A stretch of 64,000 nt of DNA from a virus (IMGVR_UViG_3300007171_000004:160001-224000); one strand, 5' to 3'; positions 27,382 to 55,052 are shown, numbered from the stretch's first letter. Program-made: numbers and translations. Notes: a model not told the origin generated them from the sequence alone.

Positions 27382-27408
27382 TATATTTCTCCTATATATT
27401 TACGAGGA

Positions 27409-29118: not shown

Positions 29119-29146
29119 ATTCTAAGATAACAATAAAATATCCTGC
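29119..29146 (-). promoter_or_regulatory. sigmaH-type promoter
   Basis: GCAGGATAT; AGGA-N18-GAAT, downstream of a terminator and upstream of the scaffold-decoration-MCP operon. Confidence 0.7.
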
Positions 29147-29165
29147 TATTATTGCAAGTTATACA

Positions 29166-29196
29166 AAAAACAGGGTAGAAAATCTACCCTGTTTTT
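29166..29196 (-). terminator. intrinsic terminator after the protease gene
   Basis: AAAAACAGGGTAGA-AAA-TCTACCCTGTTTTT. Confidence 0.8.
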
Positions 29197-29216
29197 ATTT
29201 TGTTGTTATTTTAAAA

Positions 29217-32200
29217 TTAGTCGATCCAAGTGATAGTTACATCAAGCTTTGAAGGATCTTTCTTATTTGCAGTAACTGTAGTTCTAGACATAGTTCCACA
29301 TTTACCGCAGAATGTTGAATTTTTGACCTTATTTGCATGTCTATTTCCACATGCTGGGCAGATCATACCAACTGGCAATCTTGCTTCCTTAGTTCTATCA
29401 AAATCTGCAGAAGCAGCTCTTAAATAAGGATCTGGATCAACTGTTGCGGATAATCTGAACATGCCTCTTGCAGCAGCCATTGGCATAGCAGGTGCAGGAG
29501 CAGCTGGCATACCAGGAGCAGCTGGAGCAGGTGCAGTTGCTGCGCCTAATCCCATATCAGGTCCTAAGCCAAGATCACCAGCTGGAGCTTCTGCTGGTGC
29601 TTCAGGTGCTTCTTCTCCACCTTTGCCATCACCAGTTGAAAGAAGTTCAATTGTTTGTGTGATCTTATATCTTGCACCACATGTCTTACACTTTGCATCA
29701 TCAAGAACATCAATATCTACATTCTTAGATCCGCAAACAAGACAGATAGATCCCCATGGAGCTTTTTCACCAGTAGATGTATCATCCGCAGGTGCTTCAT
29801 CATCTGCCATATCATCAGCAGTCATTGCGGAGAGACCTAAATCACCACCACCAAGATTGCCCATATCCATTCCAGCGTTAGCATCTACAGGACCAGGGGC
29901 AGGAGATTGAGGAGCAGGAGCGCCCATTCCAGCCATCTGTGCATATCTCTCAAGAAGCTTAGAGCGTAAAGACTTAGCAGCTACGACAGCATTTTCAGTC
30001 ATAATTACAGGAACGTCTTCGCCATTAAGCTCTGTACCTTCTACTGCATCTTCAGACACTGTATCTACATCATCTGCCTTAAATGTTTTAGTTGTTCTTG
30101 AGGAAACAGTTGCGGTAATATCTCCATTTTCGGTAACAGAGAGATCAGTGAAAGCAAATGTTCCTGGATCTACTGTAAAGCCCTTAGATTGTAAAACTTC
30201 AATTGCTTTGTTCTTAAATGCTTCTTCAAAATTATCATCAGAAGGCTTAATTCCACCAAGATCTTCAACGCAGCAATAGAATCTTACACTTTCAAACTTC
30301 TCTTGTGTAATGTTCATAGCAGCTGTCTTTTCTGCATTTTGTTGAGCAGTGATAGCCTTAGAAATAAGCTTCTCAGCAACAGCAGGTTCTTCAACAAGTT
30401 TCTTAGCAGCTCTTACAAGGGCAGAAGTCTTGATATTATAATTTTCAGAATAGTCAGCGAACCATCCCATTAAATTTTGTGTAATAGTCTGTTTGGATGC
30501 AAATCTTTGTCCCCAGAATTGTCTTCTAGCTCTTGTCTTTGCTCTAGCCTCGGAAACGGATGCAGTCTTAGCATGATTAATATGAGCTTTCATTACATTC
30601 TCATCCATGCCAGCAACTTCATCAACAATCTCATCAGGTGTTGCGCCGGTATCCTTAGCTGCAGTTCCCATAGAGGCGAGTGCAACTTGGAGATCTTCCT
30701 TAGAAATTAATTCATCATCTTCGGAAACAGCGTTGGAGAGTGCAGCCTTAAGTTCTTCGGCTCTAGATGGAGAAGCGTTCATGCCATCTACAGCAGCATC
30801 TTGAATGTCGGCCATAAGAAGCTCTGCGAATCTTGTAACACCTTCCTTGGTAATTTCACCTTCAGATACAGCAACCTTGAGAGCTTCTGATAAATCTGCA
30901 GCAGTGATAGAACCTTGAGAAACAGCATCACCGAGTTCTTCAAGAATAGCTGTTGTGGAAGATTTTGGTTCCTTTTCTTCCTTAAAGAAATCAGATCTTG
31001 CATCTTCCTTAGCTCTTACATCAGATCCAAGAGCAGAAGTTTCTACCATTTCAGGAAGTTGTGGTTCTTCAGCTAATTTACCAGCTGAATCCATAATTTC
31101 ATCAGGTGTAACCATAGCAGCAACAACAGCCTTAGCAAGAGCCTTAACTGCGGTAACCATAACTGTTTCAGCATCTGCGGAGCCATGAGTTCTACATTTG
31201 GACAATCTTTCTTCAAGAGTTCCATCAAGAACACCCTTATTAACCTTAGCGACTAATTCCGAAAGAGTTTCCTTAACTTCTTCGTCCTTAACCTTATTAG
31301 CATAAAGTCCAGCGTCTGCCAATTGCTTTTCGAGAACTTCAATATTTGCTTCAGATCTACCACTATAGTAAGATCCTGCTAATTCTTCTTCTCTGATTTT
31401 ATCGCCTGATGGGTTTTTTCTTGCGTACTCAGCAGCGTTAGCACCACCGAGTTCTTCATTCATAGCTTTATATTCTTTGTTAGTTCTAAGCTTCTCTAAT
31501 TCAACTTCCTTAACACTTCTGTCTGTAGTTGTTTCAAGCAAGGCAGTCTTAACAAATTTATTTAAGTCTTTAAGTAATTCAGAAGCAACCTTAGTGCCTT
31601 GTCCAGATTCCATCATTACTAGAGCATTCTCAGTAAGTACTGGTTCCCAATCAATTTTAACATTGTTATGATAGCCAGAAATTGAACCATCTGTTGACAA
31701 AACAACTCTATTTCCAGCCCCATCTTCAACTTTAAAATCAATGGTGACGGCGGATGCTGTTCTTTTACGTTGTTCAGACGCAATTTTAGCAAAATGATCC
31801 ATTTGATTTTTTCCCTCCGCCCTGTCATATAGGGGCGCATTTGTTTTTATATTTGTATTGCGTCCAGATGCAGATCTAATGACGCTATTAGTTGCCTCTT
31901 TAATTAACTCATCATTAACTAAAGAAGACTTGAAAGATAAAATGCCTTCAGCTAATCTTTCAAACTTCGATTTTCTAGTATTATTTGTACTAGCAAAAAC
32001 TTCTCTTCTATTATCTTTTGATGCCCATACTAACATTCCATTACTATCAGAAGCAGTTGCAATGCCTCCTCCAATAGGTTCACCCATCATTACAGCAGGT
32101 TCTAATATTCTTCCAACATTTCCAGCAGATGTATAGTTTAAATTAGCCATCTGTTGTGGTTGTTGAAGTTGAGGAGCTGCAGGTTGTCCTTGATTGATAG

Positions 32201-33407
32201 GTCTTTGTTGTGCGGTTTGTCCAGTATCAACACCATCATCAATAATATCTTGCATTGTAGATTGTAAATCAGCCATAGACTTAGTGATTTTACCTACATG
32301 TGCAAGATCGATGTTATCTTTCCTTGAGAACATATTCATCACAGCAACTTCCAAGAAATTCAGTGATAAATTAATCAAGTCTAAGATATTTAAGCCAGCT
32401 CTTGGGTCGATTCCTAAAGCTTGCATGACAGCAGAAACAGTAGCATTTTGTCCTGCTCCTGGTTGTGCTAAGAGTTGTCCACCTACAAGAGTTCCAGCGC
32501 TTTGTGCTAATCTGACTGCAGTATTAACAGTATGATTTGCTGTTTTAAGAGCTTGTTGATGTTCAGGAGATTCGTTTAAATGAAATGCTACTGCGATATT
32601 TTTGTATAGTTCGTTAGCTTTCTTTTCTAATTGTCCAGCAGCTTGAAGAATTTCGTCTACATCGTAAATTTCTTCGATTTCACAGGATTCAAAAGCTCCA
32701 TCGCCTACACAAGAGAGTTCAATAAATTTAACCCCATAGTTTTTTTCGTAGATGTGCTTTCCAGAATTAGGATGTTTCTTACCTTTCCACTTTTTAAGAC
32801 AATCGCAGTAATCTTTTTCAGTGTAGGCTTTATTTGAACAATTAGAGCAGATACCGTATTCCACAGAAGCTCCCATAGAAACGTCATGGATTACTCCAGT
32901 TCTAATATTTCTTGCAATATCTGGATAAGCTTCTTCATCTACGAAATAGGTACAGAAAACACAATTTTCTTTTTCGTCCCATTCTGCATATACAACCATA
33001 CCTTTAGCTTGTTCAATATCATCATTTTTATGGTTTGTATAGATTGGTACGCCTTCGAAAGTTTTATAAGAAGGGATTTTTTCGCCTTTAATTTCAACTT
33101 CTTTTAATAATTCTTCTTTACTAAAGTAATCGCCATTTGCATTTACTACATCTGCATCGATAGCTCTAGCACGAACCCAAAGAAGTTTTGCACCCTTTCT
33201 AGATTGCATTTCCTTAACGATATCGAAATCTTTATATTTTTTGAAAACATCATCAGGATTTGCATAGAGTGATTGAAGGCCAATTTTAGCAGCTTCTCTA
33301 AAATTTGTAGAAGCTGTTTTTAGAAGATGTTCTTTTACAAGTTCTCTATCATTAATATCTAGAAAACTCTCAATTGTAATTCTTCCACCTTTGGCAAACT
33401 TAAGCAT
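29217..33407 (-). CDS. prohead (capsid maturation) protease with a long C-terminal extension
   Basis: NANGDYF, GVPIYTNH (His), DVSMGA (Ser) and FIELSCV are HK97/herpes-type protease motifs; Zn insertion CSNC...YCDC; C-terminal Zn ribbons. Confidence 0.85.
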   Translation of the reverse strand: MLKFAKGGRITIESFLDINDRELVKEHLLKTASTNFREAAKIGLQSLYANPDDVFKKYKDFDIVKEMQSRKGAKLLWVRARAIDADVVNANGDYFSKEELLKEVEIKGEKIPSYKTFEGVPIYTNHKNDDIEQAKGMVVYAEWDEKENCVFCTYFVDEEAYPDIARNIRTGVIHDVSMGASVEYGICSNCSNKAYTEKDYCDCLKKWKGKKHPNSGKHIYEKNYGVKFIELSCVGDGAFESCEIEEIYDVDEILQAAGQLEKKANELYKNIAVAFHLNESPEHQQALKTANHTVNTAVRLAQSAGTLVGGQLLAQPGAGQNATVSAVMQALGIDPRAGLNILDLINLSLNFLEVAVMNMFSRKDNIDLAHVGKITKSMADLQSTMQDIIDDGVDTGQTAQQRPINQGQPAAPQLQQPQQMANLNYTSAGNVGRILEPAVMMGEPIGGGIATASDSNGMLVWASKDNRREVFASTNNTRKSKFERLAEGILSFKSSLVNDELIKEATNSVIRSASGRNTNIKTNAPLYDRAEGKNQMDHFAKIASEQRKRTASAVTIDFKVEDGAGNRVVLSTDGSISGYHNNVKIDWEPVLTENALVMMESGQGTKVASELLKDLNKFVKTALLETTTDRSVKEVELEKLRTNKEYKAMNEELGGANAAEYARKNPSGDKIREEELAGSYYSGRSEANIEVLEKQLADAGLYANKVKDEEVKETLSELVAKVNKGVLDGTLEERLSKCRTHGSADAETVMVTAVKALAKAVVAAMVTPDEIMDSAGKLAEEPQLPEMVETSALGSDVRAKEDARSDFFKEEKEPKSSTTAILEELGDAVSQGSITAADLSEALKVAVSEGEITKEGVTRFAELLMADIQDAAVDGMNASPSRAEELKAALSNAVSEDDELISKEDLQVALASMGTAAKDTGATPDEIVDEVAGMDENVMKAHINHAKTASVSEARAKTRARRQFWGQRFASKQTITQNLMGWFADYSENYNIKTSALVRAAKKLVEEPAVAEKLISKAITAQQNAEKTAAMNITQEKFESVRFYCCVEDLGGIKPSDDNFEEAFKNKAIEVLQSKGFTVDPGTFAFTDLSVTENGDITATVSSRTTKTFKADDVDTVSEDAVEGTELNGEDVPVIMTENAVVAAKSLRSKLLERYAQMAGMGAPAPQSPAPGPVDANAGMDMGNLGGGDLGLSAMTADDMADDEAPADDTSTGEKAPWGSICLVCGSKNVDIDVLDDAKCKTCGARYKITQTIELLSTGDGKGGEEAPEAPAEAPAGDLGLGPDMGLGAATAPAPAAPGMPAAPAPAMPMAAARGMFRLSATVDPDPYLRAASADFDRTKEARLPVGMICPACGNRHANKVKNSTFCGKCGTMSRTTVTANKKDPSKLDVTITWID

Positions 33408-33446
33408 ATAATATAATTCTCCGATCAGAGACTAGTCTTAATTTCT

Positions 33447-33474
33447 GTTCTAGAATTTGCCTCTAAATTCCTGT
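33447..33474 (-). promoter_or_regulatory. sigmaH-type promoter
   Basis: ACAGGAATT; AGGA-N18-GAAC in the portal-protease spacer. Confidence 0.65.
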
Positions 33475-33487
33475 TATTTGTACAGAT

Positions 33488-35893
33488 TTAAACAAATTCT
33501 TCTGTCATATTAGAGTTACCCAATTTTTTTCTAATAGCTTGGGAAATGACATTAATTACATCTTGTGAATGTTCTTTAAGTTCTTTATCGGTAAATCTTA
33601 ATACAGTCCATCCATTGGCAGAAAGTTCAATATCTCTTCTTTTATCCCTAGCAATTTTTTCAGGATTATTGTGCCAAATTTCTCCATCGGCTTCAATTGC
33701 AATGCCTAATTCTGGAATAGCAGCATCTAGTTGATAATCCATTGTAGGTCCAGCTAAATATTGTCCATAAATTGCAAAAGGAAGATTCATAGAAAGAAGC
33801 ATGCTGTAAAGTGATTTTTCTAGACTTGTGAACATTTGTGCTTGAGGTCTATTTAGTTTCTTTTTAGCATATCTGTATCTAATATTTTCATCTTCAGAAT
33901 TTTGCCAGGATGAGAAAACTTGATTTGCTTCATAATTAACTGGGAAAGAAAATTCTCCTCCAAATTCAGCAATTCTTAGGCTATTTCCAAAGCCATCATA
34001 TTCCTCTGGTAATGCTCCTAAGTTTCCTCTTCCTGTCACTGGTGTAATTGATTTAAGGAAAAGTTCATGAGCAACAGATTTAAATTTAACGGAAGCTAGT
34101 CTTTGATTAGAATCTTGTAAATGTCCATTAAGTTTGTCTTTGTAGATTTCATTAATAACATTTGAAGCTAATCTATATGTTTCTGTTTTAGTCTTAGCGG
34201 TAGGAGCTGGTCCCGGTGCTGGTGCTGGTGCTGGAGGAGGTGCAGGAGCTCCCATTGGTGGTGCTCCTATACCCATATCTGGAGCACCCATTCCCATACC
34301 AGGCTCAGGCATTGCTGGTCCACCGCCTGTAAATCCTTGTCCTGTCACTGGTCCTGAAGAGAATCCTGTAAGCATGTCTGTATTAGCAATATTAGGATTG
34401 TTTACAAAACCTGATCCTTGTTCAAATCTTAATCTTTCAATTTCCTGATCTGGGTCAAGTCCAAAAGATTCAATAAGAGTCATATTAGAAATAACTCCAT
34501 TTGAATTAGCAGTAACAAGCATTTGAAGCTTTCCTGTATCGTCTCTTAATTGAAGATCATCGAATTTAATTTTAGGATAGATAATTTCATCTTGTCCTCT
34601 TTCGCCTTCAACAACAAAACCATTCCAGATTGCCACTTGTTTGAAAAGTTGTTCTTCAATCCAGTGTGCAACTTCTCTTCGGAAAGTTTCAAGTCTTTGG
34701 GCCATAGCAAGAAGACCAACTTGAGCATTTCCATATGTAGGACCTTCACCATTAAGTAGAGCCTTGTTGAGCATAAGACCATCTAAAATTTCTTGGTCAA
34801 TTAATTCATATTCGTTAGTTAATTGAAGAACCTTGCCAGAAGCACCATAAAATTCAAAATCAAAAGCATGGTGAGTAACAAGTGTGAGGTTAGGGTCATT
34901 TGCAATTGTGGCTAATTCTTCCTGAACATTGTCAATATCTTCTTGTGATGCAGGTCTTTGATCATTACCTACCTTGACAATTTTAATAGGGAGAATATGT
35001 CTTTCAGCGACTAACCATTGTGATTGTCTTAATTTATCTTTATATGCTAATGTTGGGAATAATGGTCTAATCATAGGTGTGCCATAATCTTCCCAAGGGT
35101 TAGATCCATGTTTAAAGTGCTTGATAGAAATAGGGTTTAATTTAATTGGTTCTCCCCTAAGTATCATTTTCTTTACTGAATCTGGAATTTGATCATAATA
35201 TTCTCTTGGTTGTTTTTCTTGGACAATTCTAATTTCTTCTGCGGATGGTCTGTAAACATATTGTCCTTCTTGATCAATCATTCCGGGCATTTTCATTACA
35301 CTATCAGGATTTAAAATAGAGATAGATTTCCAAGTTGCGCCTTCATGTTGACATTCTTGGTTCTTCTTAGTATCCCAGTTTGAACCATGACAGTGAGGAC
35401 AATCAATTGAGGCTAAAACAAATACATCTCCAAGTAAATGATAAACCTTGGATATTTCTGGGAGCCACTTTTGGAAATTAAGTTTTTGAATGAGTTTCTC
35501 GAAATAATCTTTGACATACGAGGAAGAACATTCGAGTTTCCATCCAGAGAAAGGGTAGTTAGTGTAGAAATTGATACCAGCTGCAATTTTAGGTTCATTA
35601 TTTCTCCACCAGTTCGCCCATAAATAAACTTCTTTTCGTGCATTTGGAATTTGGAATGAAGTAGCAGTAAGGAATGGGGAATAAAAGTTAGGAGATGTTG
35701 TAATATTACCAGACATCTGTGAAAACTTAGTCATATTTGGAGAAACATTTGCTCCAAGAGATGATGCAGCTCTAGATGATGCATAGGCTCTATCAATATT
35801 AAAGCCTTCGGATCCTGTTACTCTTTCTCCGGTTACTGTTTGAGCTGCAGTTTTAAATACTGTTTGTAATGATGAAATGTTTTCTGTTGACAA
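33488..35893 (-). CDS. portal protein with C-terminal DUF559/Vsr-like nuclease domain
   Basis: TTG start with GGGAGA RBS. Portal core (IKHFKH...WEDYGTPMI...PIKIVKVG...PKIKFDDLQL) upstream of the protease; C-terminal LDAAIPELGIAIEADGEIWH...DKRRD..L..NGWTVLRF. Confidence 0.85.
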   Translation of the reverse strand: MSTENISSLQTVFKTAAQTVTGERVTGSEGFNIDRAYASSRAASSLGANVSPNMTKFSQMSGNITTSPNFYSPFLTATSFQIPNARKEVYLWANWWRNNEPKIAAGINFYTNYPFSGWKLECSSSYVKDYFEKLIQKLNFQKWLPEISKVYHLLGDVFVLASIDCPHCHGSNWDTKKNQECQHEGATWKSISILNPDSVMKMPGMIDQEGQYVYRPSAEEIRIVQEKQPREYYDQIPDSVKKMILRGEPIKLNPISIKHFKHGSNPWEDYGTPMIRPLFPTLAYKDKLRQSQWLVAERHILPIKIVKVGNDQRPASQEDIDNVQEELATIANDPNLTLVTHHAFDFEFYGASGKVLQLTNEYELIDQEILDGLMLNKALLNGEGPTYGNAQVGLLAMAQRLETFRREVAHWIEEQLFKQVAIWNGFVVEGERGQDEIIYPKIKFDDLQLRDDTGKLQMLVTANSNGVISNMTLIESFGLDPDQEIERLRFEQGSGFVNNPNIANTDMLTGFSSGPVTGQGFTGGGPAMPEPGMGMGAPDMGIGAPPMGAPAPPPAPAPAPGPAPTAKTKTETYRLASNVINEIYKDKLNGHLQDSNQRLASVKFKSVAHELFLKSITPVTGRGNLGALPEEYDGFGNSLRIAEFGGEFSFPVNYEANQVFSSWQNSEDENIRYRYAKKKLNRPQAQMFTSLEKSLYSMLLSMNLPFAIYGQYLAGPTMDYQLDAAIPELGIAIEADGEIWHNNPEKIARDKRRDIELSANGWTVLRFTDKELKEHSQDVINVISQAIRKKLGNSNMTEEFV

Positions 35894-35918
35894 TTTATTC
35901 TCCCGTTAATATTATACT

Positions 35919-36296
35919 TCAGTTTAATGTAATATTAGAAGGGAGATCTTGAAACATGTCAGCGCCTTTGCCAACGTTATATTGAGGTACGCCCCTAATA
36001 AGCATGTCTCCTCTAATATTCTCTGTACTACTCATAGATTGAAATACTGGATCATCTTCTCTTGTGTTTTTTAGTTGCTCTTCTAAAGTTAAAAACTCTG
36101 GAGAATCTTTTGATATTGATAATAAATCTAATAATTGATTTCTTTGTTGTTCAGATAATTTTCTGTATGCATCTAAACTAATTTGCATTTGATCTAATAA
36201 ATTTTTTACTTGAGGTAATAATTGTTCATCCTCTTGCAAATTAGGGGAAGAAATAATTCCTCCCCCAATAGAATTTTGTGCGATTCTATACCACAT
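35919..36296 (-). CDS. probable internal head protein
   Basis: Begins MWYRIAQ (shared head-protein motif); contains TLEEQL. Confidence 0.6.
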   Translation of the reverse strand: MWYRIAQNSIGGGIISSPNLQEDEQLLPQVKNLLDQMQISLDAYRKLSEQQRNQLLDLLSISKDSPEFLTLEEQLKNTREDDPVFQSMSSTENIRGDMLIRGVPQYNVGKGADMFQDLPSNITLN

Positions 36297-37793
36297 TTAG
36301 TCTTCTCTTGAATCCTCTAAAAGGGAATCCAATCCTAGTTCGCTAGCAAAATGTTTCAAATCATCATCAGAATATTGATGTCCCCAATCAGCTTCTTCAG
36401 CTAAAAGTTCTTCAATAGTTTTTTCAATATCTTCGTTAGTTCTTTTGGATTCTAACTCTTCTTCTCTGGTAATTGGTTCTTTTTTTGCTGTTTTGTTAAG
36501 ATGTTGAGAAACTGTCATGTCATCTCCATCCCCAGCATCTTTGAGAATTTGTTCAATGTACCACTTAGGAGCATTTTGTTTCTTGAGAAGTTCTTCAGCA
36601 TATGTTTCGAATCTCTCGTCTCTTCTGGAAATTAAATTGTCAGATTCATTGAGATTTTCTTCAATTGTTGCTTCAGTGTCAAATTCATTGTGGGATTCTA
36701 CATCTCTCATAGAATCATGTTTGTTTGTTCTTGGTAATTGATCTTCAAGAACTTTATCTGTATGAGTTTGTGCAGTTTTGGTAGATTTCTCATCGTTTCT
36801 TCTACCTAAATCTGCTGGCTTGGCTTTCCCTAAAGATTCTTCAATAGATGTGAAATTATCTTTGTTTTTGTGGGATTTAGAAGCTTCAAATCTTGCTTCG
36901 TATCCAATTTCACCTTCAGTAATTTCATTTTCTCTATTACTGTCAGAAAGGTTTAAAAGATTCTTAGCATTGTCAGGATGTCTATGAACATTAAGTCTAT
37001 TTTCCATCTTGGCATGTGTATCAGCAGTAACTCTTAACCAATCTTGATATGCACATGTAACGGAACCATCTTTTGCAATTCTAGAATCAATGCAGTTTTC
37101 TCTACACTTGCTTGTTTCCATAGGTACTGCATGACCGAGTTCAACTTTACCCTTTGGACATAGGAGATATGGTTCATTTCCCTGAGTTGATAATGAGGTG
37201 TAAGCAAGTCTTGTAGATTTTGTAGGAGTAATGGCATCAAAAGCTAATTTAATAGTATCTTTAGCTTCTTCAATATTTGCTGAAAGAATTTGATCCTTTG
37301 CAATATTGGCAATCTTTTTCATTTCAAGGGATGAATCTGAAATGATATATTGAATTGCGTTAAGAGCTTCTAATTGATGATGTCCTGGAGAAGATTTTGC
37401 AATTTTAGATGCAATTCTTTCCATTTGTGCAGCTTCATCATCTTCCATGCTTGCTAAAGAAGCGTAAGCATGTCTCAGAGCTTTTCTATGTTCGGATAGT
37501 CTAAAAGCTGATAGATTGTTAAATAAATCCTGAAGATGGTTTATAGGATTATTACCACTCATGATTTTGATAACTCTTACTGGACCGCCTAAAGAATTGA
37601 AATGATTTACTGTTGGATCTTGACTATTGAAATCAGAACCTTCTAATAAATTAAAAGGATGTTCAATTTTCTTGTGTAATGCATCAACAGAATCTTTAAT
37701 AGCTTGAAGTAATCCGCTGCCAGAAATTAAATTCTTTGCTTTTTCTGGATCATGTGTGTGATATTTTGTTGTAACTTTAAATCCTTTAGCCAT
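36297..37793 (-). CDS. probable internal head protein with repeated xxEExL motif
   Basis: Start MAKGFKV at 37793 after a G-rich RBS; RIAS, KIAK, RLAY and KTAQ motifs; Cys cluster CPKG...CRENC...C. Confidence 0.6.
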   Translation of the reverse strand: MAKGFKVTTKYHTHDPEKAKNLISGSGLLQAIKDSVDALHKKIEHPFNLLEGSDFNSQDPTVNHFNSLGGPVRVIKIMSGNNPINHLQDLFNNLSAFRLSEHRKALRHAYASLASMEDDEAAQMERIASKIAKSSPGHHQLEALNAIQYIISDSSLEMKKIANIAKDQILSANIEEAKDTIKLAFDAITPTKSTRLAYTSLSTQGNEPYLLCPKGKVELGHAVPMETSKCRENCIDSRIAKDGSVTCAYQDWLRVTADTHAKMENRLNVHRHPDNAKNLLNLSDSNRENEITEGEIGYEARFEASKSHKNKDNFTSIEESLGKAKPADLGRRNDEKSTKTAQTHTDKVLEDQLPRTNKHDSMRDVESHNEFDTEATIEENLNESDNLISRRDERFETYAEELLKKQNAPKWYIEQILKDAGDGDDMTVSQHLNKTAKKEPITREEELESKRTNEDIEKTIEELLAEEADWGHQYSDDDLKHFASELGLDSLLEDSRED

Positions 37794-38682
37794 TTTTGCC
37801 CCCAAGCCCTAAATTTTGAACTAACTCTAAATCATAATCTCTTGCTTTGAGAGCTTTTTTAATTAGTTCTAACTCTTTTTTAGCAAGATTCTTATCAACT
37901 GGTTCTTTTCCATCATTCCCAACAGTCTTTTTATCTGTATCTACTACTGACATAAGAAAGATTGCTCTATTAATAAGATCGATAGTCGAAATTTTGTTAT
38001 AATCTTGCTCTACATCATAAATTGTTTCTGCTGCAGTTCTTAAATTGACATCAGAAGAACTTTTGGTTTTTCTTTCTTTTTTCTTATTATAGTCTTTTAC
38101 AAGGTCAACAGCTTTTTCAATAGTTTCGTTATTCCAATATTTTTGCTTTGATAAATATCTAACAATATCAGATTTTTCAATCCCATGGTCTAATAACTTT
38201 CCAACCTTACCCATTAAAACTCTAAATGGATTGCCTCTAGTTTTTTTCTTCTTTTTAGGGGCTTGGGCAACTTTTAAATTAAATTTGACAGTTGCTTCTT
38301 TAGTATTATTTTCCATTGGATTTTCCTTAAAACCATCTAATCTATTTAATTGGCGATATAATCTCTGAGCTAATTCTTTTGCATTAGGATCTTTTTTGCC
38401 AGTAGCTGGATCTTTTGTTTCTCTTCTAGGATCATTCGCTAAGTCAATTGCTCTAATAATAATGCCTAATTTCTTTTTGACATTTTCATCTTGTACTTTG
38501 AGAATAAAATCTTCATAAACAGCTTTTAATTCTTTAATCTTTTCAGAATCAGCATTAATTGTTTCTTTTAAGAGTTTATTTAATTGATTTTTTGAAACTC
38601 TACTAGAATCGCCACCACCTAAGTGAATGTTATTAATACCATTTGCTGGATTTGAAGCTATACCTGCATTCTCAGAATACAT
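37786..38682 (-). CDS. probable internal head protein
   Basis: 298 aa; KVAQ and RTAA motifs. Confidence 0.6.
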   Translation of the reverse strand: MYSENAGIASNPANGINNIHLGGGDSSRVSKNQLNKLLKETINADSEKIKELKAVYEDFILKVQDENVKKKLGIIIRAIDLANDPRRETKDPATGKKDPNAKELAQRLYRQLNRLDGFKENPMENNTKEATVKFNLKVAQAPKKKKKTRGNPFRVLMGKVGKLLDHGIEKSDIVRYLSKQKYWNNETIEKAVDLVKDYNKKKERKTKSSSDVNLRTAAETIYDVEQDYNKISTIDLINRAIFLMSVVDTDKKTVGNDGKEPVDKNLAKKELELIKKALKARDYDLELVQNLGLGGKNG

Positions 38683-39507
38683 TTAGTCCTCTTTGTCAAA
38701 ATCAAGATTAACTCTATTATAAATTTGATTAATTGTTTGTGCGCTTAATTCAGCTCTAGATTCAAATTCTTCTCTAGCCTTCTTCTCTAAAGCTAACTTA
38801 GATTCTCTTCTTTGTGCAGCTGTTGCAACTCTTAAAGCTTCTCTTTCATCAAGTGCTTTAAGGTCTACAGCGCCAAAAGATGCATCATAAGCATAATCTG
38901 TAGAAGATCTAAGAATATTATGTCCTCTTGAATTAACAACATTGGATTTTCTAAGCTCATTCATCTTTGAAGATTCCCAAGATTGATGCTTGGATGCTCT
39001 AGCTTCTCTTTGTTGTTGTTGATCAACAATAGCTTGTTGTGAGGTAGCTTCTTGGCTTTGCTTGAAAGATTCTGCAATATCAATCATATCAGGATTGAAA
39101 ATCGATGCAGATCTAGATAACATAGCTGCCATATAATCTTCAGATGAGAATGCCTTCAATCCACTAGTTAATGTTCTAGCGTTATCACCTTCATCATAAG
39201 CATATGAGGATCTCTTGATTGTCTCAGCACTCAAACCAGCTGTTCTCTCAATCTCTGCAACTCTTTCTTCAAAAGATAAATCTCTCAATTCATTGTAGAG
39301 AGATGGTCCTTGAATTTTTTCCCAGCTGTTGTTCTTAAAACTGGCTTCTTTATTAAATCCAGTTTGCTTTGCAATCTTAGTTCTATTGTCCTGAGAATTT
39401 GCCTTTAATTCAGCATATGGGTCATCGTTCTCTGGAGTGCCAAAGAAACTCTTTTCCAAAATTGATGGAATCTGTTCGATTTGTGAAACTTTCTTGAATT
39501 TACTCAT
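38683..39507 (-). CDS. probable internal head protein
   Basis: 274 aa; KVSQ, KIAK, KEAS, RTAG, RSAS and RVAT motifs. Confidence 0.6.
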   Translation of the reverse strand: MSKFKKVSQIEQIPSILEKSFFGTPENDDPYAELKANSQDNRTKIAKQTGFNKEASFKNNSWEKIQGPSLYNELRDLSFEERVAEIERTAGLSAETIKRSSYAYDEGDNARTLTSGLKAFSSEDYMAAMLSRSASIFNPDMIDIAESFKQSQEATSQQAIVDQQQQREARASKHQSWESSKMNELRKSNVVNSRGHNILRSSTDYAYDASFGAVDLKALDEREALRVATAAQRRESKLALEKKAREEFESRAELSAQTINQIYNRVNLDFDKED

Positions 39508-39540
39508 ATCTTTTCCCTATTAAGCCCTAAAAATACTCAA

Positions 39541-39563
39541 TCCCCCTGTTATTCACAGGGGGA
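39541..39563 (-). terminator. stem-loop / weak terminator
   Basis: TCCCCCTGT-TATTC-ACAGGGGGA, with an interrupted U-tract downstream on the minus strand. Confidence 0.5.
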
Positions 39564-39585
39564 ATTATCTCGAAGGGTTTATAAT

Positions 39586-40494
39586 TTAGTCGTATTTCTT
39601 AGTGAATAACTCGTCAATCCACTCTTGGTCGCCGTAACCAAGTTCTTCCTTCCAATATCTCTTAAGTCTGTCATAGTCAGCATTTGTAAGAGTTGCGACC
39701 TTTACGAGGCCTGTAACTGCTGCCTTCTTGACATTACCTGTGAGTTCGGATGCCATAACATTCTTGATTTCAGTAACTTCATTGCTCTCTGTGTGAACAG
39801 GAGTTCCAAGCATTGCATCGATATACTCTTGTGGGAATCCAGCTGCTTGAGCCTTCTTGATGAATGCAGTCTTTGCTGCAGAATTAGCTTCAGAAACCTT
39901 TACAAAGGTAGCTTCAGGAGCTGCAACCTTGACATTCTTCTTTGCTGCATTTTGAGCTTCTACAATCTTTTCAATCTTGTTAGCTAAACGAACTCTGCGC
40001 TCATGTCTAGCTGCAAGGATTGCATTTACCAATGGTTGATCACCAGCTGCAATAGCTGACTCAACTGCTTCAGCAGAAAGCTGACTTGGGTGATTGAAAT
40101 GAATTTGTCTATTTGCCTTCACGTCTTTACCTCTAACAACCTTTTCATGTTCTGTTTCATTCATAGCTTCTGTATCATCATCAGCTTCGCCGTCTTCGTC
40201 TTCAGTTTCTTCAACTTCTTCTTCGACTACAGCGCCATCTTCGTCTTCATCATCATCGTCGTCTTCTTCATCATCAGAATCTTCAGCAAGAGCTTTGAGA
40301 GCTGCTAAAACAGCATCTTCATCGCCTTCTGCAGTCACATGATTCTTGAAATGCTCAACGAGTTCTTTTGGCATCTTTGGGCTTTTCTTCTTGGCTTCAA
40401 CAATGTTTAAGCCTTCCCAGTTGATACCTTGATACACGAGTTCAGAGTCAAGTTCACCCTCTTGAACACGGTTTGGAAAAATTCTATCTGCCAT
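39586..40494 (-). CDS. abundant acidic probable head protein
   Basis: D/E tract; KVAA, KTAF, KKAA and KVAT motifs; MCP-like codon bias; AAGGA RBS. Confidence 0.65.
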   Translation of the reverse strand: MADRIFPNRVQEGELDSELVYQGINWEGLNIVEAKKKSPKMPKELVEHFKNHVTAEGDEDAVLAALKALAEDSDDEEDDDDDEDEDGAVVEEEVEETEDEDGEADDDTEAMNETEHEKVVRGKDVKANRQIHFNHPSQLSAEAVESAIAAGDQPLVNAILAARHERRVRLANKIEKIVEAQNAAKKNVKVAAPEATFVKVSEANSAAKTAFIKKAQAAGFPQEYIDAMLGTPVHTESNEVTEIKNVMASELTGNVKKAAVTGLVKVATLTNADYDRLKRYWKEELGYGDQEWIDELFTKKYD

Positions 40495-40530
40495 ATTTTT
40501 TAGTTCCTTCGAGAAGAGTACAGAAAAAAA

Positions 40531-40558
40531 GTTCTTTATTAAAGCTTAATTTTCCTGC
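40531..40558 (-). promoter_or_regulatory. sigmaH-type promoter
   Basis: GCAGGAAAA; AGGA-N18-GAAC upstream of 40494. Confidence 0.65.
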
Positions 40559-40587
40559 TAAATTAATATATTTAATTATAGTTTTTA

Positions 40588-41462: not shown

Positions 41463-41471
41463 ATAATTCTC

Positions 41472-41915: not shown

Positions 41916-41939
41916 ATCTTAATCTATTGGCTACAAACT

Positions 41940-43034: not shown

Positions 43035-43050
43035 AATAATCTTTTACAAT

Positions 43051-44025: not shown

Positions 44026-44028
44026 ATA

Positions 44029-45642: not shown

Positions 45643-45676
45643 TATTTAATTATCCACAAAATAATTTTCATATCTA

Positions 45677-49593: not shown

Positions 49594-49606
49594 ATTTAGA
49601 TTGTAC

Positions 49607-49636
49607 AAAAAAAAGAACCTCGGTTAAGAGGTTCTT
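49607..49636 (-). terminator. intrinsic terminator
   Basis: AAGAACCTC-GGTTAA-GAGGTTCTT plus a T-run on the minus strand. Confidence 0.75.
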
Positions 49637-49662
49637 ATACTTTATGATATATTTAAATTATA

Positions 49663-50370
49663 TTAGATGTTAAGAGCTTTTTTAAGTCTTTCGTATGGAC
49701 TTGTGGCATCTGCAGCATAAACAAGAAATTCATCTGCAAGGCCAAAACTCTCATAATTTCCTTGGGTATATTTTTCGCTATTAGATTTACCAAGATTAAG
49801 ATCAACTTCTGCTTCATGGTTTTTGATAGCTACTCTGAAGGTATTATTTCCAGTAGAAGCAATTTTAGCGGTGGAATTTTGTGCAGTAAGAACGTTGCCT
49901 AATAAACACTCTTCGAACCATGGCTTTAATTCGCTATGAAGTGTTTGGAGTGCATTACTGTCTTTTTGTGCATATTCGGCTAATTTTACCAATGAATCAA
50001 AAGCCTTATTAGAAACTTTAACGATTGCATGGTCGCCTTGGCATAATCTCTTGGCGAATTCCTTAGCAGAAACATTCTTGAGGGTATTTTCTACAGCTGG
50101 TTTACAATCATCATACTTTGTTGGAACTACTGGGATAAATGTTGCTTTTTGGGCTTCCTTAACATTTTCTTGGAAGATAGAAGAAGCATACTTCTCTACC
50201 ATATCAAGATCGAAATTTTCACTAGCTAAAATTTCAATAGCGTCTGATCTGTTGTAGCCTTGTTGCTTTAGATCTGACGCTAATCGTTGAATTAACATGC
50301 CTTGACCAGAACTATGAGACTTAAGCTCATTCCTCCAGTTATAAATAAAGTCATTTTTTGTTTCGTACAC
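49663..50370 (-). CDS. probable virion/head protein
   Basis: GTG start with AGGAG RBS; RLAS, KEAQ and KIAS motifs. Confidence 0.6.
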   Translation of the reverse strand: MYETKNDFIYNWRNELKSHSSGQGMLIQRLASDLKQQGYNRSDAIEILASENFDLDMVEKYASSIFQENVKEAQKATFIPVVPTKYDDCKPAVENTLKNVSAKEFAKRLCQGDHAIVKVSNKAFDSLVKLAEYAQKDSNALQTLHSELKPWFEECLLGNVLTAQNSTAKIASTGNNTFRVAIKNHEAEVDLNLGKSNSEKYTQGNYESFGLADEFLVYAADATSPYERLKKALNI

Positions 50371-50505
50371 TCTTATTATCTCCTGGTATAAAATTTTCTT
50401 TCAAGCCCCTAAAATAAAAATAAGGGCCACGAAGAAAGGCAACCCAAGAAGAAGAGCAAGAAAGAAGAAGAACACATAAGATATAATGCAAAATTTTTGG
50501 GCAAA

Positions 50506-51057
50506 TTATACTATTTCTTCTTCTAGTAATTTCTTAAGTGATTCTAATGCTCGTTCTAATCTTCTTGAAAACGATGCTTGGGTAATTTTCAATAATTCTG
50601 CAGCTTCTTCTTGAGTATATTCTTCAAAGAAATATAACTTAATTGCCTCTCTTTGTTTTTCTTTCAATTTAAGCAATGCATCTTTTATTACAATTTTATC
50701 CAATATTCTATTAAATGGATCACTGGCTTTTAGTTCTTGAATTTCTTGTTCATCAATTTCTTCAAGATGCGTGAATTTGCATTTGATGAGATTAACAATT
50801 GCTCTATCTATTCTTGTTGCTAAGTAATATGAAAAGAAAGATAATTCTGGATCATAAAGTTCTACAAGCTTCTTAAAGATAAAATAAGATTCTTGAATTA
50901 CATCCTCTACATATCTTATAGAATTATATTTAACTGTGCATCTTCTAATTGATGTTCTAATTAAGGGAGTATAGAATTCGTAAAGTTTATTTAAAGAATA
51001 TTGATCATTATTTTTAGCTTTTTCTACCAGCTTATTTATTTCTTCATAATTGTCCAT
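50506..51057 (-). CDS. sigma-70 family sigma factor (ECF-like, regions 2 and 4)
   Basis: LVEKAKNND...LYEFYTPLI...EDVIQE...YDPE...FSYYLAT; LKEKQREAIKLYFFEEYTQEEAAELLKITQASFSR. Confidence 0.85.
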   Translation of the reverse strand: MDNYEEINKLVEKAKNNDQYSLNKLYEFYTPLIRTSIRRCTVKYNSIRYVEDVIQESYFIFKKLVELYDPELSFFSYYLATRIDRAIVNLIKCKFTHLEEIDEQEIQELKASDPFNRILDKIVIKDALLKLKEKQREAIKLYFFEEYTQEEAAELLKITQASFSRRLERALESLKKLLEEEIV

Positions 51058-52090
51058 TGGTTAAACTCTTTATATAAACTTTATCTGAAAGAGCTAAAGC
51101 TAATCTTGGGAATACAATATTTTCTTTAACGTTATTTCTCAAATCTATTATACTGTTCACTGTAGATAGATACATGTTGGTTATTTCTTCAGTATTGTTT
51201 TTGAAATTATTGTAAGCAATTTTAGCTCTGATTGGATTAGGAGCTGGTATATTGATATTCTTTATTTCTGCATATCCATTGTCGAAATATTTGTTAATGA
51301 AATCTTCTAATTTAATAAGTTTATCAATTTCTTGGATATTCAGATTTTTTTCTTTAATTTCAGCTATAGAGAAATAAAAATTTAATTGAGAAAGTAAGAT
51401 CATTAAAGTCGCTTGATGACCATGGCTTTTATTTAAATTATCTAAGCCTTGGAGAATTTTTTTAGAATCTTGTTGAAAGCAATCGTTTATAAAATCAAAT
51501 ATATTGTCATCGTTAGAAAAGTTGCAATCATTAAAGTCTTCTAAAGTAAGTGGTCTATCAAATGCAGATGTAAGTTTGTGAATTTCATTTGTAAGAAGAT
51601 ATAGATTATAAACAATAGCATCTTTCTTGACATTATTTTCCTTAATTTTAATTGTTTCTGTCGGGCAATTATTTAAAAGGAATTGAAAAGCTTCATTTGT
51701 CATTTGAATATTGCCAAGAAACTTTTTGAGATTATTCTGATCGTTCACTAAGATAGGTTGAATATTAACAATTCTTTTATATTTTTGGCAGTTTTTAGAA
51801 AAAGATGATCTCATATCTAAGGAATCATTTATAGCAAAAATTCCGATAATATTTGATATGTTTTCCACATTGTCATTAATAAGCTTTAGAATCTCAGCTT
51901 TGGGATTAATGATTTTGAATACTCTTTGATTTGAGAAAATATTGAATTGAAATAAGCTCTTGTGGATTGTATTTAAATCAGCATCATTATCAAAAAATAT
52001 CAGATCCTTGGAATTAACCAAAGATCTGAAATGCATGTTAGATAAGAAATCATCCCCTGTGTATACAAAAATATTATCCCACTTGTTCAT
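51044..52090 (-). CDS. holA: DNA polymerase III delta subunit-like
   Basis: VYTGDDF, FNIFSNQRVFKI, LTNEIHKL, NIFDFINDCF, ILLSQL; next to dnaN and dnaX. Confidence 0.6.
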   Translation of the reverse strand: MNKWDNIFVYTGDDFLSNMHFRSLVNSKDLIFFDNDADLNTIHKSLFQFNIFSNQRVFKIINPKAEILKLINDNVENISNIIGIFAINDSLDMRSSFSKNCQKYKRIVNIQPILVNDQNNLKKFLGNIQMTNEAFQFLLNNCPTETIKIKENNVKKDAIVYNLYLLTNEIHKLTSAFDRPLTLEDFNDCNFSNDDNIFDFINDCFQQDSKKILQGLDNLNKSHGHQATLMILLSQLNFYFSIAEIKEKNLNIQEIDKLIKLEDFINKYFDNGYAEIKNINIPAPNPIRAKIAYNNFKNNTEEITNMYLSTVNSIIDLRNNVKENIVFPRLALALSDKVYIKSLTNGQL

Positions 52091-53192
52091 TTGCTTTGAC
52101 CGGGAATATCATATGATTGATATCCTTATTATTACACAGTATACCATAGCTGTTCTCATTAATTTCTTTAAATTCAAATTCTAGTTTAAGATCCTGAAAT
52201 AAGTCAAAATATTTTAAAAAAGATCTATGGGATACAAGAGTCTCACATTGTCCATCTATTTCTTCACAGTCTAATGAATACTTCAAAATTCCAACACTAT
52301 CATCAGCTGCAGAAATATTGAGTTTTTCATCAAGCTGTAATTTAATATAAGAATCTTTAGCAATCAATGAAGAAAGTTTTAGTGCATTTTGTAATTCACT
52401 TGATAAGACTTTTACTTTAGCAATGGTTGGTTTTTCGATCCATACCTTTAGATCTGGAAAATTTTGAGAACCTTCCAGTAAAGAAGTATAGATTGTATTT
52501 CCCCAAGATATTTTAAAATGTTTCTTACATGGCCAAATCTTAATTTTACTATCTTGAATATTTAATGAAGATAAGAAATCAACAGCCTCTTTAGGTATGA
52601 GAAAAACATGGCTTTTATTGCAGTTTAAGCGACTTTCTTTTTGAACTATAGATATTCTTCCAAGATCACAAGATTCAGCTCTAATATGATTAAAATCAAC
52701 TGTAAACTTTAAAGCTGTCAAGGGAGCATTTTGCCATTCAGAACTTACAGAAAAATATGTATTCTTGATTAATCCCATGAATAAATTTGATTCTATTTCA
52801 AATTCATCATCTGTGGATAAAGGTTTAAATGAAGAAAAGTCATCACCTTTACCACAAGGAAATGCCATCTTTGTTTTCTTGTTTCCAGCAATTAATGCAT
52901 TATCATCTTGCTTATAGACACATTGAATCTTATCTTCAGGAAATTGATTAAAAAACTCTAAAAATAATGCAGCATTAATTGAAAACTGAAAATCATCTCC
53001 TTTATCTAAACTTTCATATGGCAGAATGATACTTTGTTCAGATATCTCGTTAATTGAAACGATACAAAGAATCTCATCTTTCTTGTAAATTAAAAATTCA
53101 GAATCTGCTTTGCCCTTTGATTTAGTATTACAAGTTTTCAAGGCTTGTTTTAAAATAGGCAAAGTGGAAGTTCTAGAAAATGTAATTTTCAA
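52074..53192 (-). CDS. dnaN: sliding clamp (DNA Pol III beta)
   Basis: 372 aa with a three-repeat clamp pattern: IKNTYFSVS, RAESCDLGRIS, LIPKEA, SLLEGSQNFPD, MIFPV. Confidence 0.8.
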   Translation of the reverse strand: MKITFSRTSTLPILKQALKTCNTKSKGKADSEFLIYKKDEILCIVSINEISEQSIILPYESLDKGDDFQFSINAALFLEFFNQFPEDKIQCVYKQDDNALIAGNKKTKMAFPCGKGDDFSSFKPLSTDDEFEIESNLFMGLIKNTYFSVSSEWQNAPLTALKFTVDFNHIRAESCDLGRISIVQKESRLNCNKSHVFLIPKEAVDFLSSLNIQDSKIKIWPCKKHFKISWGNTIYTSLLEGSQNFPDLKVWIEKPTIAKVKVLSSELQNALKLSSLIAKDSYIKLQLDEKLNISAADDSVGILKYSLDCEEIDGQCETLVSHRSFLKYFDLFQDLKLEFEFKEINENSYGILCNNKDINHMIFPVKANEQVG

Positions 53193-54187
53193 TGAAGTTG
53201 CCCTTGGAATTCAATTTCGATGCCTGGATTGTATTTCATGATTTGACTCATTATGCAAAGCATAAACGAACCTTCATCATCAACAAAATGAAGTTTCCCA
53301 TCTTCATACCAATCCCAACCATTTTCAACTTGAGCTAAAACATCCATTTTATTCACAATGAGTTTAGTAACACCATTCATTTGACAAGCTTGATTTACTT
53401 CATCAAGATTCAACCAGTCTATTTGTCTTGGTCGTCCCGTAGTGGCTCCGTATTCTTGACCAATCTCACGCAACTTTTCAAATCTGTCGTCGTGTACTTG
53501 CTGGTAATCTTTGGCTCCAACATAGGTAGAATAACACTTGATAACCCCGACAACATTCCGTATTTGCTGATAATTGAAACCATTATTTAAAACTGCTCCT
53601 ACTCCTGTATTTGAAGATGTGACATATGGATAATCGCCAAAGTCAATATCTAGCCAATATCCTTGAGCACCTTCAGCTAAAAATTTTTTTGGAGACGAAT
53701 GAATAAGAGTATGCATATTCACAAGATAAGGTTGTAATTCAGGCACATCTTTGGCACGAATTCCTGTACGAGACACTTTATCCCGATAACAAGGACCATT
53801 TCCAGTACGTGTTGTTCCAATCTTAGTATCTTTGGAATCTTCTTCGATATGATCTCTAGTAATTATATGAGCGTTTTCAGCAATACGTAAGATCGATGTA
53901 TCAAAACCAAGATTTTCTAGATATTCGATTTCTTCGAATAACTTCTGGGTATTAATAACACATCCGTTGCCAATTACGCTAGGTATCCCATGAAGTATGC
54001 CACAAGGAACTAGGTGTGTAACAATTTTCTCTCCTTTGAGGTAAATTGTATGACCAGCATTTCCTCCACCGTTAAAACGAATCACATAATCATATTCGCC
54101 AGATGCAGCCATTTGATTAGCTATCTTGCCCTTACCCTCATCGCCATATTGCATTCCAATTACGACATCAACAACTGAAGTTTCCAT
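53189..54187 (-). CDS. purA: adenylosuccinate synthetase (short type)
   Basis: GMQYGDEGKGK, GGGNAGHT, EGAQG, YPYVTSS, GATTGRPR, NKMD. Confidence 0.92.
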   Translation of the reverse strand: METSVVDVVIGMQYGDEGKGKIANQMAASGEYDYVIRFNGGGNAGHTIYLKGEKIVTHLVPCGILHGIPSVIGNGCVINTQKLFEEIEYLENLGFDTSILRIAENAHIITRDHIEEDSKDTKIGTTRTGNGPCYRDKVSRTGIRAKDVPELQPYLVNMHTLIHSSPKKFLAEGAQGYWLDIDFGDYPYVTSSNTGVGAVLNNGFNYQQIRNVVGVIKCYSTYVGAKDYQQVHDDRFEKLREIGQEYGATTGRPRQIDWLNLDEVNQACQMNGVTKLIVNKMDVLAQVENGWDWYEDGKLHFVDDEGSFMLCIMSQIMKYNPGIEIEFQGQLH

Positions 54188-54192
54188 GTCTT

Positions 54193-54220
54193 ATTATATC
54201 GGATTTTGCAATTAAATCAA
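54193..54220 (-). promoter_or_regulatory. sigmaA-type promoter, probably leaderless purA mRNA
   Basis: TTGATT-N16-TATAAT-N5-ATG with no SD sequence. Confidence 0.6.
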
Positions 54221-54260
54221 GATTCAAATAGGCTGATTTCGATTTCTTTGTTATGTTCTT

Positions 54261-55052
54261 CTACTCGTTTTTCTTATCTTTACTTTGGATGTATTCTTCT
54301 ATTACTATGATTTCTTCTCTATATAATGAGCCTTCAAATTTGTGATTGGCATCTTTATAGACTGTGTATACATCTGTGGCTTTTTTTCTGATTCGAGTAA
54401 GAGCATTGTCTACACATTTTGCTGGAACATTTAGATTTTTTGAGATTTCTTTGTAAGTAGAATCGTATCCATATTCTTCAAAGATCTCAGTTTCTAATGG
54501 TGTAAGTTTTTTCTTTAAAATTTTTGATGCTTCTTCTAATTCTTCTTTAAGTAGAATGTCATCAATGATTTGAGTTTCTCTTGGTTCACCAAATGGATTA
54601 TCTCTATCTGGAATGAAATCTGCTAAAGTTTGTAAATTTCCATCATCTCCTAAAATAATTGGAGCATCTAATGAAATAGATTCGTTTAAAATTGTATTCT
54701 TCATTCGCTTTGCTGAAGAAATAGCTGTCGCAAGGTGTCTTTTACAAACTAAATTTACACAGAAATTTTTAAATGTTGTATCTTTAGTGCAGTCAAATGA
54801 ATTTATTGCTTTGAGAACTCCTAGTCTGAGTTCTTGTAAAACATCTTCTTTATCAGATCCCAATATAAAGAAGTGAAAAGTTAATTTCTTTAAATCTGGT
54901 TCAACCATTTTAAGAAGGGTGTCAAATGCTCTATTGTCACCCTTCTTAGCCTTTTCAACCAATCTTACTATTCTAACAGTTTCTGCTGCCATAATTTCCT
55001 CCACGGCAGCAATCAATTTTAAATCATTTGTTACTTTGAGCAACAATCCCAA
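54261..55052 (-). CDS. sigH: SigH-like RNA polymerase sigma factor
   Basis: FFILGSDKEDVLQELRLGVLKAINSFD...FKNFCVNLVCKRHLATAISSAKRMKNTILNESISLDAPI and LTPLE...TYKEIS..LNVPAKCVDNALTRIRKK closely follow the SigH/Spo0H pattern. Confidence 0.85.
   Translation of the reverse strand: MGLLLKVTNDLKLIAAVEEIMAAETVRIVRLVEKAKKGDNRAFDTLLKMVEPDLKKLTFHFFILGSDKEDVLQELRLGVLKAINSFDCTKDTTFKNFCVNLVCKRHLATAISSAKRMKNTILNESISLDAPIILGDDGNLQTLADFIPDRDNPFGEPRETQIIDDILLKEELEEASKILKKKLTPLETEIFEEYGYDSTYKEISKNLNVPAKCVDNALTRIRKKATDVYTVYKDANHKFEGSLYREEIIVIEEYIQSKDKKNE

Follow-up and report, generated by a model that had tools for sequence, protein, structure and literature searches.

Results

Genes and sigma factors in the window

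We analyzed a 64,000-nucleotide stretch of viral DNA (IMGVR_UViG_3300007171_000004:160001-224000; hereafter, the window), and we describe here a bipartite element, AGG-N19-GAA, that precedes its virion genes, together with a SigH-like sigma-factor gene, sigma1, whose product we propose as the reader of this element. The window comprises bases 160,001-224,000 of an IMG/VR virus contig of 300,536 bp (33% GC, estimated 84% complete). Its minus strand carries a head-morphogenesis cluster, with genes for the terminase large subunit, the portal, a 1396-aa protein with a head-protease domain and the major head protein, and neck and tail genes lie on its plus strand. A replication block encodes a bacterial-type clamp loader, a beta clamp, a delta subunit, purA and two sigma factors. 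The sigma1 gene (54261-54992, minus strand) is situated within this cluster between the clamp-loader and purA genes, 31 nt after the former; the second gene, sigma2 (50506-51057, minus strand), encodes an ECF-like (extracytoplasmic function) protein of 183 aa that matches Pfam Sigma70_r4 and r2 and the NCBIfam sigma70-ECF model (84.5 bits).

A search with the portal protein recovered 69 related viral loci at 50-93% identity, several of them on contigs of 260-380 kb. The order clamp loader, sigma, purA, clamp, sigma2 is kept on freshwater metagenome contigs, where the sigma copies are about 70% identical, and metagenomes of aquatic, freshwater, reservoir and estuary origin, collected in several studies, contain DNA of the phage. 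Therefore, the phage is a member of a widespread, uncultivated family of aquatic jumbo phages. In a phage reference collection, DNA similarity searching returned no match and protein similarity searching just ten weak matches (26-31% identical).

A conserved bipartite element before head genes

In three minus-strand spacers, AGGA stands 18 nt before GAA[T/C], exactly as the original prediction, made from the sequence of the window, had read them. P1 (29119-29146; AGGA at 29144-29141, GAAT at 29122-29119) lies 55 nt before a gene for a 551-aa protein, P2 (33447-33474; AGGA at 33472-33469, GAAC at 33450-33447) 40 nt before the 1396-aa gene, and P3 (40531-40558; AGGA at 40556-40553, GAAC at 40534-40531) 37 nt before a 302-aa gene. 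All three late-promoter candidates are intergenic and on the gene strand, 37-55 nt from a start codon, in a contig that is only 4.3% intergenic by our own open reading frame (ORF) call. The strict pattern RCAGGAWWW-N15-GAAY matches the window 3 times against 0.13 expected, with none of 100 shuffles reaching 3, a count on which we do not rely, the pattern having been derived from the same three sites. The entire 300,536-bp contig contains these 3 matches only, and a contig scan at neighboring spacings gave no intergenic match. The looser pattern MAGGW-N17-AGAA shows no excess by raw count in the window (4 found, 3.9 expected). The significance of the motif comes from its position and its conservation in relatives, not from its raw count here.

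We examined the spacers upstream of the orthologues of these three genes for AGG-N19-GAA (that is, AGGN-N18-GAA) at spacings of 14-24. The element was present in 44 of 46 spacers before the 551-aa gene, in 61 of 63 before the gene of the 1396-aa protein and in all 54 before the 302-aa gene; this amounts to 159 of 163 orthologous spacers, with any other spacing in that range found in at most 17. The sequence between the boxes diverges freely among relatives. For the consensus, we used 55 nonredundant family sites that were chosen by an AGG and GAA search, so that the constancy of both cores is by construction. Positions left free by the search were biased as well: A or G is preferred at -2 and A or C at -1, the base after AGG is A in 23 and T in 29 of the 55 sites, and the base before GAA is A in 49. 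The base after GAA is T in just 11, and the window sites themselves read GAAT, GAAC and GAAC. The family consensus is thus R[A/C]AGG[A/T]-N17-AGAA. This is looser than the pattern first given for the sites. Both cores and the distance of 18 nt are shared with SigH promoters, but the fourth base of AGGA is either A or T, and the T of GAAT is not conserved.

An unbiased search leads to the same element. When all pairs of 3-mers at spacings of 10-23 were counted in the upstream spacers of three whole genomes, AGG-N19-GAA ranked first (62 found against 11 expected, z 14.7), and the corresponding list of 3+4-mers was topped by AGG-N18-AGAA (43 against 3.9). Genome-wide, intergenic AGG-Nx-GAA is in excess at N19 only. 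Writing G000 for the window's own genome and G001 to G005 for the related genomes used in comparisons, the matches at N19 and at other spacings number 28 versus about 7 in G001, 46 versus about 10 in G003 and 10 versus about 6 in G000. In G001 and G003, high-scoring sites stand before orthologues of the window's head, neck and tail genes, and others precede giant Ig-domain proteins that match head-decoration and tail-fiber families; a single hit of lower quality, without GAA, lies before a topoisomerase gene. The excess extends beyond the 69-locus jumbo family: across 13 outside loci, each with a sigma1-clade gene, we found 27 intergenic matches at N19 and a mean of 7.8 over eight other spacings. 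Taken together, the motif is a real, conserved and orientation-specific bipartite element before head and virion genes. It is enriched before virion genes and distinct from the early promoters described below.

Additional sites were found in the window genome. At 12064-12091 on the plus strand, before a 224-aa neck/tail gene with a head-tail adaptor gene just downstream, the motif reads AGG-N19-CAA, with CAA replacing GAA; this is one of the single-mismatch sites of the original prediction. Because the same spacer, in relatives of the 224-aa gene taken from whole related genomes, carries a proper AGG-N19-GAA in G001, G002, G003 and G004, the site is probably a degenerate, weakened orthologue of the late promoter. 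Beyond the window, the contig has another likely site at 143,792-143,816, in front of an Ig-domain protein of 2279 aa; sites before the orthologues in G001 and G003 correspond to it. A second single-mismatch site, at 4869-4842, is present as predicted but has no comparative support; we rejected it as unsupported, the downstream 665-aa gene being barely conserved and the divergent spacer conserving TTGTACAAC, not the dyad.

This TTGTACAAC is a copy of a palindromic word, TGTACA(A), and is shared with G003 before an orthologous small zinc-ribbon gene. The word occurs in 8 upstream spacers of the contig against 0.8 expected, including copies at about 4850-4858, at about 25480-25520 and at 33478-33484, the last of which directly precedes the -35 box of P2. 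The word could serve as an operator or as a further promoter element.

Sigma1 is a SigH-like protein of a mostly phage-borne clade

The original prediction had placed a SigH/Spo0H-like sigma at 54261-55052, and we agree with this assignment. The maximal ORF runs to a TTG at 55052; since homologues begin at an internal Met and a GGAGG ribosome-binding site precedes the ATG at 54992, that ATG is probably the true start, giving a protein of 243 aa. Pfam recognizes sigma-70 regions 2 and 4. Its top five NCBIfam matches are all SigH-type (TIGR02859 and NF006145-NF006148; 85.6-113.5 bits, E down to 9.5e-33), followed by the generic sigma-70/ECF model TIGR02937 (56.6 bits) and SigF (about 40 bits), and its best PDB match, 3mzy, is named 'RNA polymerase sigma-H factor'. 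The scores remain far below the equivalog cut-offs of the SigH models, which range from 208 to 414 bits (113.5 against 212, 106.6 against 208 and 106 against 294.8), where a bona fide Bacillota SigH, for comparison, scores 209 against 208.

The nearest cellular relatives, at 29-36% identity, belong to the SigH family and come from Bacillota, Actinomycetota, Vulcanimicrobiota/Eremiobacterota and Armatimonadota. A quick maximum-likelihood tree, built with one very long outgroup, unites sigma1 with 22 metagenomic or phage representatives in a clade on a long stem (SH-aLRT 99), outside the clade of cellular SigH from Bacillota, Actinomycetota, Vulcanimicrobiota and Armatimonadota (SH-aLRT 95). Where the gene context of the clade members is visible, it is phage-like. 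By family, then, sigma1 is SigH-like, but by neither score nor tree is it a cellular SigH: the SigH family is its nearest kin, but it does not fall inside the SigH of Bacillus or of Bacillota. Placed in a deep, mostly phage-borne sister clade, sigma1 is not a recent capture of a host gene, and a recent co-option of a host SigH is not supported.

The residues by which SigH proteins would contact their promoters are retained. R105 and T109 of sigma1 align with the R and T of region 2.4 (CITRQIITAI in Priestia megaterium and Clostridium SigH), and sigma1 also keeps the helix of region 4.2, K-x-[VI]-D-N-A-L-x-R-x-[KR]-x-K, in which K212, D215, N216, A217, R220 and K224 do not vary among the 14 phage and cellular sequences aligned. 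Suppressor genetics by Zuber in 1989 and by Daniels, Zuber and Losick in 1990 reportedly indicated that R96 and T100 of B. subtilis SigH read the -10 box of spoVG. We take R105 and T109 to be the equivalents of these residues, as a lead only.

Transcription units and RNA-library depth

The gene blocks behind the three sites are arranged as separate units. P1 is followed by an operon (25824-29064, minus strand) of the 551-aa gene, a 222-aa gene and the gene for the 284-aa major head protein (PHROG 2522, E 2.7e-67), and a minus-strand terminator hairpin directly after this capsid gene (25775-25803) marks the end of the P1 transcription unit. The gene of the 1396-aa protein, which has an N-terminal head-maturation-protease-like domain (29217-33407, minus strand), is proposed to be driven by P2. 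Between this protease gene and P1 lies a hairpin with a 14-bp stem and with T and A runs on both sides (29166-29196), a predicted terminator that would insulate P1. Downstream of P3, a minus-strand block (33488-40494) contains the 302-aa gene, then genes for proteins of 274, 298, 502 and 125 aa, and the gene for the 801-aa portal. Sigma-70-like matches in the head region are at the level of chance (46 against 47.7 expected), and the P1, P2 and P3 spacers have no sigma-70-type match on the gene strand.

Four metatranscriptome runs hold contigs of this phage, with the greatest depth over the P1 operon. Two RNA-library contigs, of depth 38 and 20, run from the 551-aa gene to 29117 and 29125, inside P1; the depth upstream of P1, over the protease gene, is at least 10-fold lower, and it drops again past the terminator at 25775-25803. 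The step at P1 is consistent with a strong start there, with the reservation that contigs cannot define a 5' end. These data bear on whether the element is a promoter at all. It could conceivably be a binding site for a regulator or for a packaging or structural protein, or a conserved feature of an RNA leader, and a low-depth RNA-library contig that extends into the P3 -35 box, to position 40555, would fit such a role. The depth step at P1 speaks against it, and so does the anatomy of the element, which is that of a sigma-70-family promoter: a pair of short, invariant boxes held exactly 19 nt apart by a free spacer, strictly oriented, and located immediately behind terminators, 30-80 nt ahead of start codons. 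We consider a non-promoter role very improbable and treat the element as a promoter in the following.

Some features of these units stand apart from the motif. The 302-aa gene is separated from its downstream neighbor by a minus-strand CCCCCTG/CAGGGGG hairpin that a partial T run follows (39508-39585). It could attenuate transcription from P3 and thus yield an excess of the 302-aa protein; RNA-library depth over the 302-aa gene exceeds that over its neighbors. Some metatranscriptome runs reach a depth of 826 at 34044-34577 and of 435 at 39918-40451, and contig joints and loose ends cluster near 40240-40276, an acidic repeat-like stretch. These peaks are probably due to cross-mapping from relatives or to low complexity, not to expression. 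A few bases before the start codon of the 551-aa gene, at 29069-29082 (minus strand), a near-invariant TAAGGGAAGCAGCA is found in about 45 related loci, unchanged even where the surrounding spacer has fully diverged; this may reflect an extended ribosome-binding site or a regulatory element of the leader.

Early promoters are lineage-specific

The replication block shows a different kind of promoter. Before purA, at 54193-54220 (minus strand), we found the sigma-A/sigma-70-like TTGATT-N16-TATAAT that had been predicted there. The TATAAT ends 5 nt before the annotated ATG (54187-54220, minus strand), which suggests either that the purA mRNA is leaderless or that the real start codon lies further downstream. 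Elsewhere, early promoters occur as repeated cassettes that differ between genomes: G000 has a GGGGGGTTAACCCCCC hairpin with TTGACA-N17-TGnTATAAT (contig 283-290 kb, outside the window), G003 has about 8 copies of AAAAATCCCC-N17-AATCGGATATATAA, and G005 has about 45-50 copies of TTCCAG-N16-TTATAAT. The early cassettes are thus lineage-specific, whereas the AGG-N19-GAA class is common to the lineages, as would be expected if a phage-borne factor reads it.

This pattern bears on the idea that a SigH-type sigma of the host reads the motif, with the phage sigma as an accessory, for example in host manipulation, and with timing set by host physiology or by another phage factor. The motif does resemble cellular SigH promoters, and SigH-family sigmas are found in several phyla. 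Against this, the motif is kept across phage lineages of 31-64% GC, which presumably have very different hosts, while the early promoters change from lineage to lineage, and the sole factor present in every such phage locus is the phage sigma. A host reader is, in our judgment, improbable, and a phage-encoded sigma is the better candidate.

As for the host itself, the strength of the Shine-Dalgarno sequences and the TTGACA/TGnTATAAT early promoters of the phage argue against a Bacteroidota host and name no host. A 'moraphage' lineage of aquatic jumbo phages, which may be a different one, has been predicted to infect Bacteroidota (PMC12619734). The Bacillus and sporulation setting of the original prediction is not supported, as these phages come from freshwater and estuary metagenomes and nothing ties the family to either.

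Which of the two sigma factors reads the motif

Each of the five large genomes has both sigma genes, as do the mid-distance relatives, with sigma2 about 3 kb from sigma1. Co-occurrence therefore cannot separate the two, and the motif could be a late promoter that is read by sigma2, leaving sigma1 for middle genes or for host genes. Besides its constant company, sigma2 has well-conserved region 2.4-like and 4.2-like helices, and dyad searches of the related genomes found just lineage-specific repeats, with no further motif conserved throughout the family that might be its target. One phage of the sigma1 clade, L303, has a single sigma on record, and there GCAGG-N19-GAAC stands before the DNA polymerase and primase genes rather than before late genes. 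Several other large records hold extra sigma genes elsewhere.

Other evidence favors sigma1. The boxes and their spacing are not those of typical ECF promoters, and sigma1 retains the SigH-type contact residues. SigH promoters, in turn, have been described as a -35 AGGA and a -10 GAAT separated by 17-18 nt, resembling those of the B. subtilis and C. difficile SigH regulons (PMC12456013), so the motif fits the promoter type of the SigH-like protein. The sharing of the late motif by lineages with different early promoters points in the same direction. In addition, the integrase-bearing prophage contig L245 (64% GC) encodes a sigma that is basal in the sigma1 clade and has no detectable sigma2 homologue. 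CAGG-N19-GAAC occurs in this contig three times, at N19 only and always on the strand of the late genes: one site precedes the terminase genes, one the protease and capsid genes, and one lies just after the capsid gene. A search for close relatives with the L245 sigma gave nothing useful, and three other single-sigma look-ups led to contigs of 1-2 kb with no useful context. On this evidence, we think it likely that sigma1, rather than sigma2, reads the motif, and we regard the reverse assignment as unlikely.

Discussion

Based on these findings, we propose that AGG-N19-GAA is the late-promoter class of this family of aquatic jumbo phages and that it is read by the SigH-like sigma1, a reading to which we assign a probability of roughly 0.7. 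We infer both the promoter nature of the element and the role of sigma1 from sequence comparison. In the proposed scheme, host RNA polymerase with its primary sigma would transcribe the early and replication genes from TTGACA/TATAAT-type promoters, and among them the sigma1 gene behind the clamp-loader gene. Sigma1 would then bind the host core polymerase; its region 4.2 helix (K-C-V-D-N-A-L-T-R-I-R-K-K) would read AGG[A/T] at -35 and its region 2.4 (R105, T109) would read GAA at -10, and the virion genes would thereby be switched on. In this form, the earlier suggestion that a SigH-type sigma serves as the late-gene sigma of the phage is partly supported, in that a SigH-like sigma and a motif before the virion genes are both there; a recent host origin of the sigma is not supported.

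Several observations weigh against this scheme. The window genome has 3 consensus sites and about 2 variants, against roughly 13-30 sites in its relatives, and it is also poorer in intergenic DNA (4.3% versus 6-8.5%); the long plus-strand block of tail genes in the window has no clear motif site. The ends of the two RNA contigs at P1 lie 7-16 nt upstream of the predicted +1. The last base of each box, the A of AGGA and the T of GAAT, varies across the family, sigma1 scores far below the SigH cut-offs, and the contact role of R105 and T109 is presumed. The presence of sigma2, with its conserved DNA-binding helices, in every close relative and the placement of the motif before replication genes in L303 also belong here.

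Phage sigmas that direct middle or late transcription are familiar from SPO1 (gp28 and gp33/34), T4 (gp55) and phiEco32 and 7-11 (gp36). As in those phages, a sigma-70-family protein that is made early would redirect the host core polymerase to the promoters of later genes, and here, too, the sigma gene lies among the replication genes, in a block with a sigma-70-like promoter and a conserved gene order. The present case differs in the sigma subfamily, the promoter consensus, the hosts and the phage lineage; the phage is an aquatic jumbo phage, uncultivated and known from its sequence alone, whose clamp and clamp loader are of the bacterial type. The case of phiEco32-like phages is treated in PMC8948821, and SPO1 is mentioned in PMC13401047.

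Compared with SigH (Spo0H) of B. subtilis and other Bacillota, sigma1 shares the best-matching sigma family, a two-domain architecture of roughly 200-240 aa, the two region 2.4 residues R and T, and a region 4.2 helix of the form K-x-[VI]-DNAL-x-R-x-[KR]-x-K. In both kinds of promoter, the cores AGG and GAA stand equally far apart (AGGA-N18-GAA, where 18 nt falls in the published 17-18). However, sigma1 is phage-encoded, only 29-36% identical, below the equivalog cut-offs and a member of a separate, deep and mostly phage-borne clade; the fourth -35 base of its proposed promoters is A or T, the T of GAAT is not conserved, and the motif stands before virion genes, not before transition-state or sporulation genes.

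Schwartz and colleagues described SigF/SigG-like sigmas in Bacillus phages and studied how these affect sporulation of the host (Schwartz et al. 2022, PMC9429907; 2023, PMC10294663). Those genes, like sigma1, are annotated by pipelines as 'sporulation-specific sigma factor', but they are SigF/SigG-like, and no cognate class of phage promoters was assigned to them; the present phage, moreover, is not known to have a sporulating host. SigH is not discussed in the 2022 study (0 occurrences), and a KEGG orthology group that includes SigH is listed in these studies among those in viral genomes. In the literature that we searched, no phage sigma of the SigH branch is described together with a cognate class of late promoters. 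Phage-encoded late sigmas are already known as a kind, and the SigH branch with cognate late promoters would be a new addition, well supported by comparative genomics. In the window, a 122-aa ORF (62989-63357, minus strand) has a sub-threshold match to SpoVS (E 0.008; 16 bits against a cut-off of 24), and a 322-aa ORF from 63361 (contig 223361-224329) has no Pfam match.

A broader scenario may be sketched, which we hold to be doubtful. The phage SigH-like sigmas might be an ancient viral lineage, sister to all cellular SigH, in which the AGG-N19-GAA grammar remained fixed across phages from 300-kb lytic jumbo phages of low-GC hosts to temperate phages of about 40 kb in hosts of 64% GC, and the viral and cellular lineages may have exchanged this sigma early. 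Since the phage and cellular SigH grammars overlap, the SigH regulon of a host, with its functions in competence, the transition state and the initiation of sporulation, could also be fired when the phage infects or lysogenizes the cell. Such cross-activation, also raised in the original prediction, is pure speculation.

What the analysis offers for these widespread, uncultivated freshwater and estuarine jumbo phages is a concrete and testable pair: a sigma gene and a consensus, R[A/C]AGG[A/T]-N17-AGAA, with named promoters before the capsid, protease and portal-block genes. It also corrects an over-reading, as nothing supports a Bacillus host, sporulation or a recent capture of a host gene. 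The pair is a candidate for an orthogonal sigma and promoter system, and it would extend the repertoire of phage-encoded sigmas to the SigH branch. In genomes of 260-380 kb, where most genes have no recognizable function, the motif should allow late transcription units to be annotated.

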